This document shows, one piece after another, positions 1 through 51,425 of a DNA stretch of 64,000 bases. The first letter of the stretch is position 1, and each line of letters opens with the position of its first letter. The notes beneath the pieces were generated by a model. It did no database searches. It was given only the letters and a program-made list of their open reading frames with translations, and was not told the origin of the DNA. The position numbers were made by a program, and so were the translations under genes. This stretch comes from Escherichia coli (lineage in GTDB: Bacteria > Pseudomonadota > Gammaproteobacteria > Enterobacterales > Enterobacteriaceae): NCBI RefSeq assembly GCF_024502345.1, contig NZ_JALDNN010000001.1. One strand, given 5' to 3'.

Positions 1-1958
1 GGCTACAAGCCGGACAGCGGGGCGAAGCGTTGCTGATGAACGGCGACGACGCGCGTCCGGTGCGTGCTTCGGACATCAGTGTGCTGGTGCGCAGCCGCCA
101 GGAGGCCGCCCAGGTGCGCGATGCCTTAACGTTGCTGGAAATCCCTTCCGTTTACCTTTCGAACCGCGACAGTGTTTTTGAAACTCTGGAAGCGCAGGAA
201 ATGCTTTGGTTGTTGCAGGCGGTGATGACGCCCGAACGTGAGAACACCCTGCGCAGTGCGCTGGCAACGTCAATGATGGGGCTGAATGCGCTGGATATTG
301 AAACGCTGAACAATGACGAACATGCGTGGGATGCGGTAGTTGAAGAGTTCGATGGTTATCGGCAAATCTGGCGCAAACGTGGCGTTATGCCGATGCTGCG
401 GGCGCTGATGTCGGCGCGTAACATTGCAGAAAACTTGCTGGCAACGGCAGGCGGTGAGCGGCGTCTTACCGATATCTTGCATATCAGCGAACTGCTTCAA
501 GAAGCCGGAACGCAGCTGGAAAGTGAACATGCGCTGGTACGCTGGTTATCGCAACATATCCTCGAGCCAGACAGTAATGCCTCCAGCCAACAAATGCGCC
601 TCGAAAGTGATAAACATCTGGTGCAGATTGTCACGATCCATAAATCAAAAGGGCTGGAATATCCGCTTGTCTGGTTGCCATTTATTACCAATTTCCGCGT
701 CCAGGATCAGGCGTTTTATCACGATCGCCACTCGTTTGAGGCTGTTCTGGATCTTAACGCTGCGCCAGAAAGTGTCGATCTCGCGGAGGCCGAACGTCTG
801 GCGGAAGATCTGCGTTTGCTTTACGTGGCGCTGACGCGTTCGGTTTGGCATTGCAGTCTCGGCGTTGCACCGCTGGTGCGCCGTCGTGGCGATAAAAAAG
901 GTGACACCGACGTCCACCAAAGTGCGCTCGGGCGTTTGCTGCAAAAAGGGGAACCGCAAGATGCGGCAGGGCTTCGCACCTGTATTGAAGCGTTATGCGA
1001 TGATGATATTGCCTGGCAAACGGCACAAACTGGTGATAACCAGCCCTGGCAGGTTAATGATGTTTTAACTGCAGAACTGAATGCGAGGACGCTACAACGA
1101 TTGCCCGGCGATAACTGGCGTGTCACCAGCTACTCCGGTTTGCAGCAGCGTGGTCACGGTATCGCTCAGGATCTGATGCCACGGCTGGATGTTGATGCCG
1201 CAGGCGTGGTCAGCGTCGTTGAAGAACCGACGTTAACACCGCATCAGTTCCCGCGCGGTGCGTCACCGGGGACATTCTTGCACAGTTTGTTTGAAGACCT
1301 CGATTTTACCCAGCCGGTTGACCCGAACTGGGTGCGGGAAAAACTGGAACTCGGCGGCTTTGAATCGCAGTGGGAACCGGTATTGACCGAGTGGATCACG
1401 GCTGTCCTCCAGGCACCTCTCAATGAAACCGGCGTAAGCCTGAGTCAACTTTCCGCCCGCAATAAACAGGTGGAGATGGAGTTTTATCTGCCGATTAGTG
1501 AACCGCTTATCGCCAGTCAGCTTGATACGTTAATCCGCCAGTTTGACCCGCTATCCGCTGGCTGCCCGCCGCTGGAGTTCATGCAGGTACGCGGCATGTT
1601 AAAAGGCTTTATCGACCTGGTGTTCCGCCACGAAGGGCGTTATTACCTGCTCGACTATAAATCCAACTGGTTGGGTGAAGACAGTTCGGCTTACACCCAA
1701 CAGGCTATGGCAGCGGCAATGCAGGCACACCGCTATGATCTGCAATATCAGCTTTATACCCTGGCGCTGCACCGTTATCTGCGCCATCGCATTGCTGATT
1801 ACGACTATGAGCGCCACTTTGGCGGCGTTATTTATCTGTTCCTGCGTGGTGTTGATAAAGAACATCCGCAACAAGGGATTTACACAACCCGCCCCAACGC
1901 CGGGTTGATTGACCTGATGGATGAGATGTTTGCCGGTATGACTCTGGAGGAGGCGTAA
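1..1958 (+). CDS. recB: Exodeoxyribonuclease V beta subunit RecB, C-terminal part (5' end lies outside the window)
   Basis: ORF 30..1958 is open back to the window edge in the same frame; translation recognised as the RecB C-terminal nuclease domain; stop overlaps the recD start (TAATGA). Confidence 0.9.
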
Positions 1959-3784
1959 TGAAATTGCAAAAGCAATTACTGGAAGCTGTGGAGCACAAAC
2001 AGCTACGCCCGCTGGACGTGCAGTTTGCCCTGACCGTGGCGGGAGATGAACATCCTGCCGTCACCCTCGCGGCGGCACTGTTAAGTCATGATGCCGGAGA
2101 GGGACACGTTTGTTTGCCGCTTTCACGACTGGAAAATAATGAGGAGTCGCATCCGCTGTTGGCGACCTGTGTCAGTGAAATCGGTGAGCTACAAAATTGG
2201 GAAGAATGCTTGCTGGCTTCACAAGCGGTCAGCCGGGGAGATGAACCCACGCCGATGATCCTCTGTGGCGATCGTCTTTATTTGAATCGCATGTGGTGTA
2301 ACGAGCGGACGGTAGCGCGCTTCTTCAATGAGGTGAATCATGCCATCGAGGTGGATGAAGCCTTGTTGGCGCAAACCCTGGATAAACTCTTTCCGACTGG
2401 TGATGAAATTAACTGGCAAAAAGTGGCGGCAGCAGTGGCGCTGACGCGGCGGATCTCGGTGATTTCCGGCGGCCCTGGCACCGGTAAAACGACCACCGTA
2501 GCGAAGTTGCTGGCAGCGTTAATTCAAATGGCCGACGGCGAACGCTGCCGTATCCGTCTGGCTGCACCAACGGGTAAAGCTGCCGCGCGCTTAACCGAAT
2601 CTCTCGGCAAGGCTTTGCGACAGTTACCGCTGACCGATGAACAAAAGAAACGCATTCCGGAAGATGCCAGTACTTTGCACCGATTGCTGGGTGCGCAGCC
2701 GGGTAGCCAGCGTTTACGTCATCATGCCGGTAACCCGCTGCATCTTGATGTGCTGGTGGTAGATGAAGCGTCAATGATCGATCTGCCTATGATGTCGAGA
2801 CTGATCGACGCCTTGCCCGATCATGCGCGAGTGATCTTTCTCGGCGATCGTGATCAACTGGCCTCGGTTGAGGCTGGGGCTGTGCTGGGCGATATCTGCG
2901 CTTATGCCAATGCCGGCTTTACCGCCGAGCGTGCCGGGCAGCTAAGCCGCCTGACGGGAACTCACGTTCCGGCAGGAACTGGCACAGAAGCGGCATCTTT
3001 GCGCGACAGTCTCTGCCTGCTGCAAAAAAGCTATCGTTTCGGCAGCGATTCTGGCATTGGTCAGTTAGCTTCGGCGATCAACCGTGGTGACAAAACGGCA
3101 GTGAAAACCGTTTTTCAGCAGGATTTTACTGATATTGAAAAACGGCTTTTACAGAGCGGCGAAGATTATATTGCGATGCTTGAGGAAGCTCTTGCGGGTT
3201 ATGGACGTTATCTGGATCTGCTGCAAGCGCGTGCCGAGCCGGATTTAATCATTCAGGCGTTCAATGAGTACCAACTTTTGTGCGCCCTGCGGGAAGGGCC
3301 GTTTGGCGTGGCTGGACTGAATGAGCGAATTGAGCAGTTTATGCAACAGAAGCGCAAAATTCATCGTCATCCGCACTCTCGTTGGTACGAAGGCCGACCG
3401 GTGATGATTGCCCGTAATGACAGCGCGCTTGGGTTGTTTAATGGCGATATCGGTATTGCGCTGGATCGCGGGCAGGGGACGCGCGTTTGGTTTGCGATGC
3501 CGGACGGCAATATTAAGTCTGTGCAACCGAGCCGCCTGCCAGAGCACGAAACGACGTGGGCGATGACGGTACATAAATCGCAGGGATCGGAGTTCGACCA
3601 TGCGGCGTTGATTTTACCGAGCCAACGCACGCCGGTAGTAACGCGAGAGCTGGTTTACACCGCAGTGACCCGCGCGCGTCGCCGTCTGTCGCTGTATGCC
3701 GATGAGCGTATATTAAGTGCGGCAATCGCCACTCGTACTGAGCGGCGCAGTGGTCTGGCGGCGTTGTTTAGTTCGCGGGAATAA
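1958..3784 (+). CDS. recD: Exodeoxyribonuclease V alpha subunit RecD (608 aa)
   Basis: 608-aa ORF with Walker A motif GGPGTGKTT and helicase motifs; start overlaps the recB stop. Confidence 0.93.
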
Positions 3785-5408: not shown

Positions 5409-6662
5409 ATGTCAGGATCCAACACTGCAATCAGCCGTCGTCGTTTACTGCAAGGCGCGGGTGCCATGTGGCTATTGAGCGTAAGTCAGGTCAGTCTGGC
5501 TGCGGTCAGCCAGGTCGTGGCGGTGCGCGTCTGGCCTGCGTCCAGCTACACCCGTGTGACGGTAGAATCAAATCGTCAGCTGAAATATAAGCAGTTCGCG
5601 TTGAGTAACCCTGAACGCGTGGTGGTGGATATCGAAGATGTAAACCTGAACTCGGTACTCAAGGGGATGGCGGCACAAATTCGTGCAGACGACCCGTTCA
5701 TCAAGTCGGCGCGCGTCGGGCAATTTGACCCGCAAACCGTACGGATGGTTTTTGAGTTAAAGCAAAATGTAAAACCGCAGATGTTTGCCCTCGCGCCGGT
5801 CGCCGGGTTTAAAGAACGTCTGGTGATGGACCTTTATCCGGCCAATGCTCAGGACATGCAGGACCCATTGCGGGCGCTGCTGGAAGATTACAATAAAGGC
5901 GACCTCGAAAAGCAGGTGTCGCCTGCGCAGAGTGGCCCACAGCCAGGCAAGGCCGGGCGCGATCGTCCGATTGTCATTATGCTCGACCCTGGCCACGGCG
6001 GCGAAGACTCCGGCGCGGTGGGGAAATACAAAACGCGCGAAAAAGACGTGGTATTGCAAATAGCTCGCCGTCTGCGCTCTCTGATCGAGAAAGAGGGCAA
6101 TATGAAGGTTTACATGACGCGTAATGAAGACATCTTCATTCCGTTGCAAGTGCGCGTAGCAAAAGCACAGAAACAGCGTGCTGACCTGTTTGTCTCTATC
6201 CATGCCGACGCCTTTACCAGTCGTCAGCCGAGCGGTTCCTCGGTGTTTGCGCTCTCAACCAAAGGTGCAACCAGTACTGCGGCAAAATATCTGGCACAAA
6301 CCCAGAACGCCTCGGACTTGATTGGTGGCGTGAGCAAAAGCGGTGACCGCTATGTCGACCACACCATGTTCGATATGGTGCAGTCGCTGACCATTGCCGA
6401 CAGCCTGAAGTTTGGTAAAGCGGTACTGAATAAGCTCGGTAAAATCAACAAGCTGCATAAAAATCAAGTTGAACAGGCCGGGTTTGCCGTACTAAAGGCA
6501 CCAGATATTCCCTCCATTCTGGTCGAAACGGCGTTTATCAGTAACGTTGAGGAAGAGCGTAAACTGAAAACGGCGACCTTCCAGCAGGAAGTTGCGGAGT
6601 CTATTCTTGCAGGGATTAAAGCGTATTTTGCCGATCGGGCGACGCTGGCGAGAAGGGGATGA
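5409..6662 (+). CDS. amiC: N-acetylmuramoyl-L-alanine amidase AmiC (417 aa, Tat signal)
   Basis: ORF 5319..6662; start chosen at [23 protein letters not shown] (twin-arginine signal) with a GGAGAG RBS upstream; amidase_3 domain recognised. Confidence 0.9.
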
Positions 6663-6735: not shown

Positions 6736-6812
<77 letters not shown>

Positions 6813-6844
6813 TCACCGTACTGCTTTATTTCATTAAATTTGAT

Positions 6845-6921
<77 letters not shown>

Positions 6922-6954
6922 TCACCGTACTGCTTTACTTCATCAAATTTTAAT

Positions 6955-7031
<77 letters not shown>

Positions 7032-8424: not shown

Positions 8425-8524
8425 TGCCGGATGCGGCGTGAACGCCTTATCCGGCCCACAAATCATGCAAATCCAAAATATTGCAGGAGTTATGTAGGCC
8501 TGATAAGCGTAGCGCATCAGGCAT
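8425..8524. repeat. BIME: two inverted REP (palindromic unit) elements
   Basis: gccggatgcggcgtgaacgccttatccggcc and gtaggcctgataagcgtagcgcatcaggc match the E. coli REP consensus. Confidence 0.8.
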
Positions 8525-11516: not shown

Positions 11517-11722
11517 AAAAAAAAGCACCGCAATTAGGCGGTGCTACATTAATCACTATGGACAGACAGGGTAAATGTACAGGAAGTGAAAAAAGGTAGC
11601 TTTGCTACCATGGTCTGAATCGCAGACCAATTGCAAACACAACAACACAACATCACAACCGTAAGCCAAAAGTTCACCAGAACACGCATTCCGATAAAAC
11701 TTTTCGTTCCGGCTCAGGAAGT
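11517..11722 (-). ncRNA. gcvB: GcvB small regulatory RNA (about 206 nt)
   Basis: Minus strand reads ACTTCCTGAGCCGGAACGAAAAG...GTTGTGATGTTGTGTTGTTGTGTTTGCAATTGG... and ends in a hairpin GCACCGCCTAATTGCGGTGC plus U-run; recognised as E. coli GcvB, divergent from gcvA. Confidence 0.9.
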
Positions 11723-29137: not shown

Positions 29138-29683
29138 GTGGACGATTTGACCGCACAAGCCCTGAAAGATTTTACTGCACGCTACTGCGATGCGTGGCAT
29201 GAAGAGCATAAAAGCTGGCCGTTAAGTGAGGAACTGTACGGTGTTCCTTCACCGTGCATTATTTCAACTACCGAAGATGCCGTATACTGGCAACCCCAGC
29301 CGTTTACCGGGGAACAAAATGTAAACGCGGTTGAACGCGCTTTTGATATTGTGATACAACCCACAATTCATACCTTTTATACGACTCAGTTTGCCGGGGA
29401 TATGCACGCGCAGTTTGGCGATATCAAACTGACATTGCTGCAAACCTGGAGTGAAGACGACTTCCGTCGGGTGCAGGAAAATCTGATTGGTCATCTGGTG
29501 ACTCAGAAAAGGCTAAAACTGCCGCCCACGCTATTTATCGCGACGCTGGAAGAAGAGTTAGAGGTCATCTCGGTGTGTAATCTCTCCGGTGAAGTGTGCA
29601 AAGAGACGCTGGGAACACGTAAACGGACGCATTTAGCCTCAAATCTTGCGGAATTCCTTAATCAACTTAAGCCTCTTCTGTAA
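29138..29683 (+). CDS. syd: SecY-interacting protein Syd (181 aa)
   Basis: 181-aa ORF recognised as Syd. Confidence 0.88.
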
Positions 29684-29702
29684 TCCAAATACCCCATCTG
29701 GT

Positions 29703-29720
29703 TGTGAGAGATCTCTTACA
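29703..29720. promoter_or_regulatory. UvrY (SirA)-type 18-bp palindrome upstream of csrB
   Basis: TGTGAGAGATCTCTTACA near-perfect palindrome about 175 bp upstream of the CsrB start. Confidence 0.7.
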
Positions 29721-29894
29721 GACTCTGTAGGAGATCGCCAGGAAATAAGCGAATACTTAAAAAGATAAGAATCGTTATTTTCATTTAAAATCAAAATGTT
29801 GATTGTTAATTCTTAACTTTCATATGAAATTTTCCTTAAGGCATTGTCTGTAAGCGCCTTGTAAGACTTCGCGAAAAAGACGATTCTATCTTCG

Positions 29895-30259
29895 TCGACA
29901 GGGAGTCAGACAACGAAGTGAACATCAGGATGATGACACTTCTGCAGGACACACCAGGATGGTGTTTCAGGGAAAGGCTTCTGGATGAAGCGAAGAGGAT
30001 GACGCAGGACGCGTTAAAGGACACCTCCAGGATGGAGAATGAGAACCGGTCAGGATGATTCGGTGGGTCAGGAAGGCCAGGGACACTTCAGGATGAAGTA
30101 TCACATCGGGGTGGTGTGAGCAGGAAGCAATAGTTCAGGATGAACGATTGGCCGCAAGGCCAGAGGAAAAGTTGTCAAGGATGAGCAGGGAGCAACAAAA
30201 GTAGCTGGAATGCTGCGAAACGAACCGGGAGCGCTGTGAATACAGTGCTCCCTTTTTTT
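29895..30259 (+). ncRNA. csrB: CsrB regulatory RNA (CsrA-sequestering, multiple GGA motifs)
   Basis: About 365 nt with roughly 18 repeated CAGGA(U)G/AGGA motifs and a terminal hairpin GGGAGCGCTGTGAATACAGTGCTCCC plus U-run. Confidence 0.9.
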
Positions 30260-30304
30260 ATTCCTGCTATCCTTCGCGGCAGTTTTTCTTATTGAGGTTG
30301 CTTT

Positions 30305-30634
30305 ATGACCACTCATGACCGCGTTCGTCTCCAGTTGCAGGCGCTTGAAGCGTTACTGCGTGAACATCAGCACTGGCGAAACGATGAACCCCAGCCGCAT
30401 CAATTTAATAGTACCCAACCGTTCTTTATGGACACCATGGAACCACTGGAGTGGTTGCAGTGGGTGCTGATCCCGCGAATGCACGATTTGTTAAATAACA
30501 ACCAGCCGTTACCGGGCGCTTTTGCTGTTGCACCCTATTATGAAATGGCGCTGGCGACGGACCATCCGCAACGCGCGCTTATTCTGGCTGAGTTGGAAAA
30601 ACTGGATGCTCTTTTTGCGGATGATGCGAGCTAA
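30305..30634 (+). CDS. yqcC: DUF446 protein YqcC (109 aa)
   Basis: 109-aa ORF immediately upstream of and abutting truC. Confidence 0.8.
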   Translation: MTTHDRVRLQLQALEALLREHQHWRNDEPQPHQFNSTQPFFMDTMEPLEWLQWVLIPRMHDLLNNNQPLPGAFAVAPYYEMALATDHPQRALILAELEKLDALFADDAS

Positions 30635-36603: not shown

Positions 36604-39360
36604 TTACCCGAGAATTTTGCTGGCTTCGCGCGCGACATTATCCATCTCGTCCAACAGTTCCAGCAGCTCCGGCTCCAAATCTTCTTCTTTAGTACCGCTA
36701 CGTAGCTGTTGTTCGATCAGTTGGCAGAGATTCTTCATACGCGGCACACCGCTATAGCCGCAACTGCCATGCAGTTTATGAATCAAATCAACCAGGCCTT
36801 CCGGGTTTTCTCCAACCAGCTGCTCCTCAACTTTGTTGCGAACTTCAGGCAGGAAATCGAGTAACATTTGCAGCATATCGCGCGCTAAATCGGTTTTTCC
36901 TGCTGCCTGGCGTAGTGCCAGTTGCCAGTCGAGGGTCGCATTCGGGTTCACCACAATTTCGTTGACTTCGGGCGTCACGACGCGAGACGAAATACCGCTG
37001 CCAGGCTTGTAGCGCAACAACAAATTATGCAATCGCTCTTCTTCAATCGGTTTCGCCAGATAATCGCTCATCCCTGCGCCAAGCAGCTTCTCTTTTTGCC
37101 CGGCCATTGCATGCGCCGTTACCGCGATAACCGGCGTTTGTTGCTGATGGGGGAGCTGGTGGATGAGCTCGCAGGCCCGAATGCCATCCATGTCAGGCAT
37201 TTGAATATCCATTAAGATCAAATCGAACGGCATCTGTTTCGCCCGTTCAACCGCCTGATGCCCGCTATCGCAAAGTTCCATATGTTGCACCATATCTTCC
37301 AGCAATGCGCCGATAAGTTTCAGGTTAGCGGGGTTGTCATCAACTGCCATGACTGTCATTGCCAGCTTGCTTTCATCGGTTACAGGCAAAAGCGTGTTTT
37401 GTTTGTGATGACAAAATTCCGTCAGGGCAGGCAACAGGCGCGTAGGTGTTAATGGTTTCAGCAGACACGCGCCGATACCATCTTGCTTGAGTTTTTCTGC
37501 ATTGACTTGTGCATGGCAAGGAAGTGCCAGCATCAGGAAATCGGTCATCGATACCGCTTTCGCTAATCGCTCATGTTGCATTGTTAGCGGCTCGCGGAAG
37601 GTCACCGCGATGCCTAACAACATCATGTCGTAATGCGCGGGAGGCAGCGCGGAGAACGTTGGGCTATAAACCACTTCCAGCGGCGTTTCACTTAAAATAT
37701 CCAGCGTGCATTGCGCTGCTGCGGAGTTTGGTTCGACATAGGCCAGGCGCTTACCGGCGAGGCACTGGGTGGATGGCCCTTCGATAATAATGTTCGGGTT
37801 CAGATCGAGATTAATGTGGAACCAGAAAGTTGAACCGCGATTCGGCTGGCTATGGAACGAAATATCGCCGCCCATTTCATTAACCAGTTTTTGTGTAATC
37901 ACCAGCCCCAGACCGGTGCCACCATGACGGCGGGAAATACTGGCATCAGCCTGTCGGAAGGCCTGGAATAAGCGCGATTGATCGCGTTCAGGAATACCAA
38001 TGCCGGTATCCCGAATCTGCACTTCAATCTGCACTTTGGTATTACTCAGCGCACGTTTTTCTACCAGAATATCAATGTTGCCATTCTCGGTGAATTTAAT
38101 TGCATTCCCCACCAGGTTAGTGATGATTTGCTGTAATCGCAGTGGGTCGCCGATCACGTTATCAGGCACGTCGCTTTTAATATTGAGCGTCAGTTCCAAC
38201 CCTTTATCGTGAGAAGAATGTGCCAGCAGAGTAACGACTTCATCCAGCGTGCTGCGTAGTGGGAATGGAATACTTTCCAGAATCAGCTTACCTGCTTCCA
38301 GTTTCGAGAAGTCGAGAACATCATTAATAATTGCCAGCAAATTATTTGCCGAACGTTCAATCGTATTCAGGTGATCGCGCTGCGTTGGTGTTAATTCTGT
38401 TTTCAGCGTCAGGCGGGTAAAGCCAATAACACCATTCAGTGGTGTACGCAGCTCGTGTGACATATTTGCCAGAAACTCGGATTTAATACGCGCCGCTTCC
38501 TGGGCGCGCTTTTTCGCCAGATCTAACTCAACGTTCTGAATTTCCATCTGCTCCAGCGTTTCACGCAGATCGGACGTCGCCTGGTCGATATTGTGCTGCA
38601 TCTCTTCGTGATAAGCAGCCAGCGACATTGCCATCGAGTTGATACCGTTTTTCAGCATATCCAGCTCGCCGAGCATAAATCCTTCCACCCGGCTGTCGAG
38701 TTGCCCGCGACGGATGCGGTCGACGGTATTCACCATGTTGCGAATCGGACCGGTTACATCGCGCATTAAGCGCCAGCCAAAAATAAGCGCAATACCGATA
38801 CAAAACAGCATCATCACGCTGGAAATAAAGATCTCTTTATATTGCTGCAAGCGAACCGATTTAAGATCCAGCTCCAGCGCAATATATCCCAACATATTTT
38901 GACTATTTTTGGCATCGCTACTGGGCGATTCGTCGGGGGAGTAACTCTCAGAAATAATCGGCGTGCGGAGGATCATAATATCGCCGTCACGAGTGACAGT
39001 GAGCTGGCGAGGAAACGGCACGTTGCTGCCGAGCTGCATTGATGAGGGATCAAGATGAAAATTGGAGGTGACAAAGAGTCGGTTATTTTCATCATAAACC
39101 GAAATCGCGCGAACAATATCGGAATGGCGACGATGCAGTACGCTTATTAACTGACCGATAGATTCGCGATTTTGCAGGCTCATGCCATATTCAGTAGAAA
39201 CTGCAAGCGGCTCAATAATGCTGGCACCGGCATCTTCCAGTTGACGCTGCAAGTCGTTATAGCGATGCACGACGAAAAAGATACTCAGCAATAAACCAAT
39301 AAGGACGGTCGGTGCCAGGATCAGAATCATCATGCGTGCGCGCAGGCTGTAGTTGGTCAT
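36604..39360 (-). CDS. barA: Tripartite sensor histidine kinase BarA (918 aa)
   Basis: 918-aa ORF with HAMP, HisKA/HATPase, receiver and HPt domains; recognised as BarA. Confidence 0.93.
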
Positions 39361-49689: not shown

Positions 49690-50009
49690 ATAAATGGGTG
49701 GAACCTGTAAAGACTTCTACTCATTTATATTGTTTGTCGCCTCTGAAAACTCCTCCATTTTACCCATCCAGGGCTAATCATTAGCATTCTCTACAAATTC
49801 TGTGGCATTAATTTTTCGCTGGAGTGAAAATTATTGCGGTAAAGTTTGGTAGATTTTAGTTTGTATAGAGTTATTTTAAATATTTACCTTTTTAATCAAT
49901 GGATTAAGTGCTCTTTAACATAATGGATGTGTTGTTTGTGTGATACTATAAAGTTGGTAGATTGTGACTGGCTTAAAAAATCATTAATTAATAATAGGTT
50001 ATGTTTAGA
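49690..50009 (+). promoter_or_regulatory. AT-rich CRISPR leader
   Basis: AT-rich non-coding stretch directly abutting the first repeat, on the side opposite the degenerate terminal repeat. Confidence 0.6.
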
Positions 50010-50832
50010 GTGTTCCCCGCGCCAGCGGGGATAAACCGCGCGATTTGTTAGCGCCCGTTGCGCCTGGTGGGTGTTCCCCGCGCCAGCGGGGATAAACCGC
50101 GCGAGTTCGTGCGCATGGGGCGCATTTTTGGCGTGTTCCCCGCGCCAGCGGGGATAAACCGCGGCGTTCATGCCCTCCAGCACTGTTACGCGGGTGTTCC
50201 CCGCGCCAGCGGGGATAAACCGTAGTCAAGCGGTAATTCATCGCCTGCAGATCCGAGTTCCCCGCGCCAGCGGGGATAAACCGGCTAATTTACGTAATTT
50301 ACGTGCTATTGCACTGAGTTCCCCGCGCCAGCGGGGATAAACCGTGGGTCATGCCGGTGATCGCCTGCCCGTCGTGGAGTTCCCCGCGCCAGCGGGGATA
50401 AACCATCACCACCGCTTGTCATAAAATTAGCGTCATAGAGTTCCCCGCGCCAGCGGGGATAAACCGGGGAGTGGCACTTCTGGGGTAGCGGCGGCCCTGA
50501 GTTCCCCGCGCCAGCGGGGATAAACCGTCAACGCGCTCAGACGTTGCGTGAGTGAACCAGAGTTCCCCGCGCCAGCGGGGATAAACCGAAATATCCAGGG
50601 CTGGGCTGGAGGCAGACGGCGAGTTCCCCGCGCCAGCGGGGATAAACCGGCGTTGATGTTCTTGCGGGTGTTGCAAATATTGAGTTCCCCGCGCCAGCGG
50701 GGATAAACCGTTTCAGCAGTTCAGCGTAACACCGACGGTCACGAGTTCCCCGCGCCAGCGGGGATAAACCGCCCGGAATGCATTCTGAAGGTTTGCTGTA
50801 TATGAGTTCCCCGCGCCAGCGGGGATAAACCA
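50010..50832 (+). CRISPR. Type I-E CRISPR array: 14 repeats of 29 bp, 13 spacers (32-33 bp)
   Basis: Repeat GAGTTCCCCGCGCCAGCGGGGATAAACCG at strict 61-62 bp periodicity from 50010 to 50804; the first 3 repeats carry a GTG variant, and repeats 7 and 14 end in A. Confidence 0.97.
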
Positions 50833-51286
50833 CCATATAACCCGTTATCTCTTTCTCAAGTTTTTATATTAGCAGTACTTGTAATAAGCAACATATCCAC
50901 GTAACACCTCATGTTCAAAATAGTTCTCCATGCCAGAGAGGTTCACAATTATCGATACAAAAAATTAAATTTAATCAAAGTGTTATTTGTATGACTCTTA
51001 AATCGTTAAGAAATTTTAATCTATTATTTTTTTAATATTGAATTAATGCCTGTTAATTTTTTCTTTAGAATAACAGTATATTTTTTAAGCTTGTTATTCA
51101 TTGGTTAAGTAATAAATCTGGAAGTTTGTCTTTGTTTTGAGGCTAATGAGTGGTTTTACATAACCGCCTCTATACGCTGTTGATGAATAGTTCTTATGAA
51201 TAAAGATATCCAGTTCATACTTTAAGTGAAAATTGATAAAGTGCGATTCGTATTGTCTTTAATTCTAAAGACATCGAGTGTAGTTA

Positions 51287-51425
51287 ATATTCCTTGTAAA
51301 AACAGGGATAAACCGAACTAGTTAAAGTTTTTATTATGTTCCCTGCATCAGCGGGGATAAACCGGACTTGTTATCATTTTTTAAGTTGTCGAACTTATGT
51401 TCCCCGCGTCAGCGGGGATAACCAT
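51287..51425 (+). CRISPR. Degenerate CRISPR remnant (about 3 diverged repeats)
   Basis: ATGTTCCCTGCATCAGCGGGGATAAACCG and ATGTTCCCCGCGTCAGCGGGGATAACCAT separated by a 32-bp spacer, preceded by a partial ...CAGGGATAAACCG copy. Confidence 0.75.

Follow-up and report, generated by a model that had tools for sequence, protein, structure and literature searches.

csrB and its upstream UvrY site in an Escherichia coli genome, absent from the automated annotation

The csrB locus and its neighbourhood

We have analysed a stretch of 64,000 nucleotides from an Escherichia coli contig (the window in what follows), and specifically the spacer between the genes syd and yqcC. The plus strand of this spacer contains, at 29894-30262, what we consider to be the E. 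coli csrB gene, with a probability of about 98%. The gene is preceded by a long control region, and the gene of the sensor kinase BarA is found further downstream on the other strand. The features of the locus are the following.

29138-29683, plus strand: syd, the upstream flanking gene (NF003439, 286.7 bits; annotation)
29703-29720, no strand assigned: 18-bp imperfect inverted repeat TGTGAGAGATCTCTTACA, the UvrY upstream activating site (exact match to the footprinted site)
29726-29736, plus strand: auxiliary half-site-like element TGTAGGAGATC (direct reading; noted in PMC4682653)
29789-29804, no strand assigned: candidate IHF site, overlapping WATCAANNNNTTR matches on both strands (AATCAAAATGTTG / AATCAACATTTTG; consensus match)
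29859-29864, plus strand: candidate -35 hexamer TTGTAA (conservation of the TTG; putative)
29884-29889, plus strand: candidate -10 hexamer TTCTAT, weak (position relative to the 5' end at 29894; putative)
29894-30262, plus strand: csrB, a 369-nt non-coding RNA with 22 GGA (RF00018 and identity to K-12 b4408)
30212-30226, plus strand: unstructured segment before the terminator, putative RNase E "necessary cleavage site" (from PMC5027483)
30227-30262, plus strand: intrinsic terminator, then TTTTTTTATT (terminator scan, Rfam terminal hairpin, predicted fold)
30305-30634, plus strand: yqcC, the downstream flanking gene (ORF; annotation)
36604-39360, minus strand: barA, coding for a tripartite hybrid sensor kinase of 918 aa, the UvrY kinase (NF008318; RefSeq and K-12 annotation)

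The Rfam covariance model of CsrB (RF00018) matched 29903-30262 on the plus strand (380.4 bits, E 1.2e-110; the gathering score is 71). All 356 positions of the model (1-356) were covered, zero non-canonical pairs were flagged, and the start of the model falls on position +10 of the RNA. An earlier note on this DNA had proposed a non-coding CsrB RNA here and had named the failure of this very model as its own refutation test; the test was run and the match was full length. The syd-yqcC spacer was identical to that of E. coli K-12 MG1655 at 621 of 621 nt. Because the alignment is 100% identical over these 621 nt, the curated K-12 csrB (b4408, 369 nt, NC_000913.3 2924156-2924524, minus strand) maps to 29894-30262 on the plus strand of the window. 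The mapping gives an exact length of 369 nt in place of the roughly 365 nt suggested before, which was near. It also corrects the interval 29703-30259 at both ends, since its last position falls 3 nt short, inside the U tract, and its first one is the beginning of the palindrome and not the 5' end of the RNA.

Judged by the complete identity and by the syd-csrB-yqcC synteny, the gene is the orthologue of K-12 csrB. The RF00018 score, the GGA richness, a non-coding unit ended by a terminator and the orthology to E. coli csrB all place it in the CsrB family. Compared with the K-12 gene (b4408, RF00018) there is no difference at the locus: the 369 nt, the syd and yqcC flanks, the 22 GGA sites and the terminator are the same. 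This is a known gene, neither a new member of the family nor a variant, and all the parts of the finding were already known. What we say below of its expression, 5' end, CsrA binding and UvrY binding is carried over from K-12 experiments done with the identical sequence. The gene is also nearly universal in the species: an 801-nt query around csrB matched 5425 of 5426 complete E. coli genomes, many of them at 100%. These matches were found at 5448 places, one of them on a plasmid record, and one of the 5426 genomes gave no match.

In the automated RefSeq record that carries the identical sequence, syd and yqcC are annotated with no feature between them, and for the ten best-matching RefSeq genomes only syd and yqcC were listed under the match. 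The curated K-12 record does include csrB. The previous statement that the RNA is missed by annotation is therefore right for automated RefSeq but not for the curated K-12 genome, while the remark that it is easy to overlook was borne out by the identical record and by the ten best matches.

The gene order of the region (queF, syd, csrB, yqcC, truC, yqcA, gudP, gudX, gudD, barA, rlmD) is the one found in E. coli RefSeq genomes. The syd stop codon (29681-29683) lies 20 nt before the UvrY site. From the 3' end of csrB (30262) to barA (36604) there are 6.3 kb, with the two genes on opposite strands, and barA was found where the earlier note had placed it. Its product scored 1621.7 bits against the NCBIfam BarA equivalog NF008318 (cut-off 890), with residues 1-917 aligned to positions 1-917 of the 920 of the profile. 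The Pfam domains found along the protein were sCache_4 (31-177), HAMP (198-248), HisKA (293-357), HATPase_c (404-518), Response_reg (670-780) and Hpt (828-910). As predicted from its translation, barA is intact and has the complete tripartite architecture.

The possibility that the window is simply K-12 MG1655 was considered and rejected: identity was 98.5% in one aligned block and 97.3% in the other (about 98% overall), and the window has 426 nt more than K-12, only the csrB spacer being identical. The extra 426 nt amount to about seven units of 61 nt, and the blastn alignment breaks inside a CRISPR array. The array is located at 50001-50834, between queE and ygcE homologues, and has 14 copies of the repeat GAGTTCCCCGCGCCAGCGGGGATAAACCG with a period of 61 nt, besides a degenerate copy at 51327-51366. 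From the excess length and the break inside the array it follows that the CRISPR spacer content differs from that of K-12.

Other RNA genes were detected in the window. The small RNA GcvB (11517-11722, minus strand; Rfam RF00022, 199 bits, full length) is located beside gcvA as in K-12, and in Yersinia, Serratia and Edwardsiella loci GcvB was also found within about 7 kb of CsrB. Three tandem initiator tRNA-Met genes (6739-7031, minus strand), with equal scores and a spacing of about 110 nt, correspond to metZ, metW and metV of K-12. A short match to the Rfam family ES036 (CssrF) at 8459-8501 (plus strand; 46.5 bits versus a gathering score of 37.6) falls in the mltA-tcdA spacer by K-12 mapping and could be no more than a terminator-like element.

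The UvrY site and the control region across genomes

With ChIP-exo and DNase I footprints, Zere et al. (2015, PMC4682653) mapped the site of phosphorylated UvrY at csrB to an 18-nt inverted repeat. The repeat TGTGAGAGATCTCTTACA is, read letter for letter, this site at its published position: its centre (29711/29712) is at -183/-182 relative to the csrB start at 29894. The palindrome of the UvrY/SirA class claimed upstream of the RNA was thus exact at 29703-29720 and verbatim the published one. It is self-complementary at 16 of its 18 positions. A search of the 64 kb that tolerated up to 3 mismatches gave this match alone, with 0.02 expected by chance. A repeat of this kind far upstream, together with the occurrence of the box beside Csr-type RNA genes elsewhere (see below), is what we found in favor of an UvrY-activated promoter, and the barA/uvrY dependence of csrB transcription has been shown with K-12 mutants (PMC4682653).

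Five bp to the promoter side of the repeat is the auxiliary element TGTAGGAGATC, which resembles its left half TGTGAGAGATC; the shorter form TGTAGGAGA occupies 29726-29734. Such an extra element beside the UvrY repeat was noted for E. coli and Salmonella only (Zere et al. 2015, PMC4682653). Compared with the csrB repeat described for UvrY/SirA, a regulator of the GacA family, in that work, the window shows no difference: the 18 nt, the centre at -183/-182 and TGTAGGAGA 5 bp downstream are the same, and a candidate IHF site is likewise placed between the repeat and the promoter.

Further on from the UvrY site, at -105 to -90 and still short of the promoter, comes the candidate IHF site. The loose IHF consensus WATCAANNNNTTR had 8 matches in the window versus 2.8 expected, so that by itself it says little. 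The ATC core of the match at 29789-29804 is nearly invariant over 12 genera. Expression of csrB is IHF-dependent, and a putative IHF site has been located between two UvrY crosslinking regions (PMC4682653), which we infer to be the one at 29789-29804. The promoter-proximal crosslinking region runs from -56 to +25 (PMC4682653) and includes the TTG at 29859-29861 (alignment columns T167 T168 G169), invariant in the 12 genera. The motif TGTAAG appears twice near the candidate -35, at 29849-29854 and 29860-29865. A scan of 29600-30400 for consensus sigma-70 promoters gave no good match, and for this reason the candidate -35 and -10 hexamers were placed by position and cross-genus conservation only, the -10 being partly conserved as gATcTTAT in the 12-genus alignment. 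The absence of a consensus sigma-70 promoter is as expected for an activator-dependent promoter.

The alignment of the upstream region that we have used covers 12 enterobacterial genera chosen by the palindrome alone. Beyond the palindrome, a TGTnnGAnATC element, the ATC core of the IHF match, the TTG and part of gATcTTAT were conserved. In the auxiliary element T34, G35, T36, G39, A42, T43 and C46 were invariant in all the 12 genera, and these columns are outside the pattern used for the search.

We have also scanned one genome per species for the box TGTNAGAGATCTCTNACA and found at least 120 loci, among the matches listed in Enterobacterales, Vibrionaceae, Shewanella, Halomonadaceae, Alcanivorax, Kangiella and others. 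A GGA-dense stretch on one side was defined by a density of 14 or more GGA per 300 nt on that side and of no more than 10 on the other, the backgrounds of the loci being 2-5 per 300 nt. By this measure, 97 of the 124 box occurrences among the matches listed, sites that are phylogenetically non-independent, had a one-sided GGA-dense stretch beside the box, and the densest GGA window started at a median of 162 nt from the box (same matches). When 20 of the listed loci were sampled, an Rfam CsrB was found adjacent to the box in 15, from Enterobacterales and Vibrionaceae. For the 11 Enterobacterales in the sample, the distance between the outer box edge and position 1 of the RF00018 model was 181-242 nt; in this window it is 200 nt. 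The association between the box and decoy RNAs is general and no chance co-occurrence.

The other five sampled loci (Shewanella, Alcanivorax, Salinicola, Vreelandella and Psychrobium) had no Rfam family at gathering score beside the box, and probably carry divergent Csr/Rsm RNAs. The Shewanella gelidimarina locus (L072) has 23 GGA per 300 nt about 190 nt from an exact box (5491-5508, GGA on the minus side) and no Rfam family at gathering score. Its GGA-dense stretch is probably a divergent Csr-type RNA that current models cover poorly.

Several genomes have more than one box. In Photobacterium and Shewanella loci (L044, L055, L062, L093 and the adjacent contig ranges L085/L086) two UvrY-type boxes were located 0.5-1.6 kb apart. 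In Photobacterium aquimaris (L085) two adjacent CsrB copies were called by Rfam, and the remaining two-box Photobacterium loci have one GGA-dense stretch per box, an arrangement that suggests tandem genes of Csr decoy RNAs. At L055, from Shewanella, both boxes seem to share a single GGA-dense stretch. Several Vibrio genomes had three separate box loci each, among the matches listed.

The sites with a one-sided stretch could be oriented towards the RNA. Among the matches listed, a TGT[AG][AGC]G motif was found 4-5 bp from the repeat on the RNA side in 72 of the 97 oriented sites and on the far side in 2 of 97. The imperfect repeat read TGTGAG...CTTACA towards the RNA in 61 sites and the reverse in 15, and 83 of 97 shared a C located ten bases outwards from the far side (29693 in the window; both again among the matches listed). 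The bias of the half-site, the 61:15 orientation and the C at 83 of 97 suggest that the UvrY/GacA-type upstream site might be a directional element of three half-sites and not a simple symmetric palindrome. We present this as a tentative lead drawn from the oriented sites among the matches listed, which are phylogenetically non-independent, and think it possible rather than probable. With respect to the two species of Zere et al. (PMC4682653), the auxiliary half-site is extended to 72 of 97 sites among the matches listed, in Enterobacterales, Vibrionaceae and Shewanella. The extension is modest; it is a small refinement and no new kind of site.

These data also bear on a reading in which the palindrome is incidental, or bound by another factor, and in which the closeness of barA to csrB is a functional linkage in cis and not plain synteny. 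The core of the repeat is indeed AGATCT, of the BglII type, and operators are commonly palindromic, but this one is the experimentally footprinted UvrY site (PMC4682653) and tracks Csr-type RNAs over several orders. As to the linkage, barA is found within the flanks of csrB-type loci of E. albertii, Enterobacter, Cedecea and Pantoea (among the matches listed), but what lies between the two genes varies: in E. albertii barA is apparently only about 1.7 kb from csrB, leaving no room for the gud operon, compared with the 6.3 kb here. The genes between them in the window (gudPXD, yqcA, truC and yqcC) are functionally unrelated. The gene uvrY is outside this window, and in K-12 it is unlinked. We found no support in cross-genome gene order for a functional (cis) meaning of the barA-csrB linkage. 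We consider this double reading very improbable; the two genes are close through a shared gene order in which the content between them varies, and the palindrome is best taken as the UvrY site of csrB.

The RNA, its GGA motifs and its relatives

The csrB interval, G+A-rich from about 29894 on and crowded with CAGGATG-like repeats, has 22 GGA triplets in its 369 nt, while the plus strand of the window has a mean of 4.98 +/- 2.52 GGA per 369 nt and its second-densest place reaches 14. The earlier note was right about the GGA richness and low in its number, about 18. This figure is the historical count of the imperfect CAGGA(U/A/C)G repeats in CsrB. Nine of the csrB GGA match the strict repeat CAGGA[ATC]G and 14 are AGGA. 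We have judged the enrichment by the window-wide density instead of by dinucleotide shuffles: the shuffled null (mean 15, maximum 23, against the 22 observed) was uninformative because the GG and GA dinucleotides are themselves enriched. The second-densest stretch, at about 1869-2237 (plus strand), belongs by K-12 mapping to coding sequence at the recB/recD junction, and its density is probably compositional.

The predicted structure exposes many of these triplets in short hairpin loops. In the Rfam consensus structure, 11 GGA are located in the loops of 11 non-terminator hairpins, which answers the proposed check of GGA motifs in predicted hairpin loops. The ViennaRNA centroid fold has the same number, 11, in hairpin loops and 6 further ones unpaired in linkers. 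The minimum free energy was -120.7 kcal/mol (z = -3.85 versus shuffles), that is, the RNA is predicted to be more stable than shuffled sequence. The terminator has an 11-bp stem with 7 G-C pairs and a 4-nt loop (30227-30252), followed by a U tract (T7).

In the numbering of Vakulskas et al. (2016, PMC5027483) the GGA sites run to number 22, the last one being part of the terminator; in agreement with it, the 22nd GGA here (30228) falls in the terminator stem. The same work placed the RNase E cleavage site of CsrB directly upstream of the intrinsic terminator, beside GGA sites 20 and 21. By identity with K-12, these two sites would be 30189 and 30207, site 21 (30207) being the last single-stranded GGA, and the cleavage segment would be approximately 30212-30226.

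Open reading frames of 22-71 aa overlap the csrB interval on both strands, and one could imagine that one or several encode small proteins, the GGA periodicity reflecting coding repeats. These frames, listed mechanically, are short, overlap each other and appear on both strands alike; no protein is called there in RefSeq or in the curated K-12 annotation, and the structure-aware RNA model explains the entire interval including the terminal hairpin and the U tract. On the ORF pattern, the annotation and the RNA model, we have rejected this coding reading, which is hardly credible. That the stretch might be another Csr/Rsm decoy, CsrC or a paralogue, was conceivable given that the CsrB, CsrC and Rsm RNAs share the Rfam clan CL00106 and all have GGA repeats, and that csrC is also UvrY-activated through a related, less symmetric repeat (PMC4682653), but the best clan member here is CsrB at 380 bits and full length, the palindrome is the csrB version and not the csrC version TGTGAGACATTGCCGATA, and with 100% identity to b4408 in the same syd-yqcC spacer this option is, on identity and synteny, already refuted and its probability practically nil.

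The gene at 29894-30262 being read as csrB, its relatives are of interest for comparison. CsrC of E. coli, RsmY/RsmZ of Pseudomonas and the CsrB-type RNAs of Vibrionaceae are likewise GGA-repeat decoys under the control of BarA/UvrY-type (GacS/GacA) systems. As in csrB, their promoters have a box of the TGTAAG...CTTACA type, which several Vibrio and Photobacterium genomes contain more than once. They differ from csrB in length, being shorter or longer, and in how many GGA sites they have. In csrC the repeat has less symmetry, and csrC activation is IHF-independent, unlike that of csrB (PMC4682653). The box loci of Alcanivorax, Vreelandella/Halomonas, Salinicola and Psychrobium had no more than about 9-15 GGA in the vicinity, and Rfam gave no match there at gathering score.

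The Csr circuit and what the locus means

Read in order, the locus consists of the UvrY box, the auxiliary half-site, the IHF-like site, a weak promoter, a multi-hairpin RNA with 22 GGA, an unstructured segment and the terminator. This order can be set against the circuit known from experiments. Formate, acetate and similar short-chain carboxylates stimulate BarA, which phosphorylates UvrY (PMC7652899, PMC4682653, PMC5027483). Once phosphorylated, UvrY binds the repeat centred at -183/-182 and, together with IHF, activates csrB transcription (PMC4682653). The RNA sequesters multiple CsrA dimers away from their mRNA targets, as established in K-12 with the identical sequence (PMC5027483, PMC7652899). 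CsrA in turn indirectly activates csrB via BarA-UvrY, closing a negative feedback loop (PMC7652899, PMC4682653, PMC5027483). Finally, the cleavage of CsrB is blocked when CsrA occupies GGA sites 20 and 21, and CsrD overcomes this block (PMC5027483).

In the strain analysed here, a carboxylate signal would act through BarA to give phosphorylated UvrY, the product of a gene outside the window, as csrA and csrD also are. Phosphorylated UvrY on TGTGAGAGATCTCTTACA, with IHF, would activate the weak csrB promoter, and IHF might do so by bending the A+T-rich spacer of about 90 bp, bringing the distant UvrY site to the promoter. The resulting CsrB RNA, with its 22 GGA, would be the CsrA-sequestering decoy. 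Its decay would begin with RNase E cleavage upstream of the terminator, with CsrA at sites 20/21 protecting the RNA and CsrD relieving the protection.

The observation made in the earlier note is confirmed and its interpretation supported, with only small numbers corrected. There is no new biology in the locus itself: csrB, its UvrY site, the IHF dependence and BarA are part of the textbook Csr global regulatory circuit. What the annotation illustrates is that a major global regulator is invisible to ORF-based and default pipelines, while a covariance-model scan recovers csrB trivially. If the tentative directional reading of the upstream site were true, it would mean an asymmetric, higher-order binding of UvrY that fixes the direction of activation across Gammaproteobacteria.
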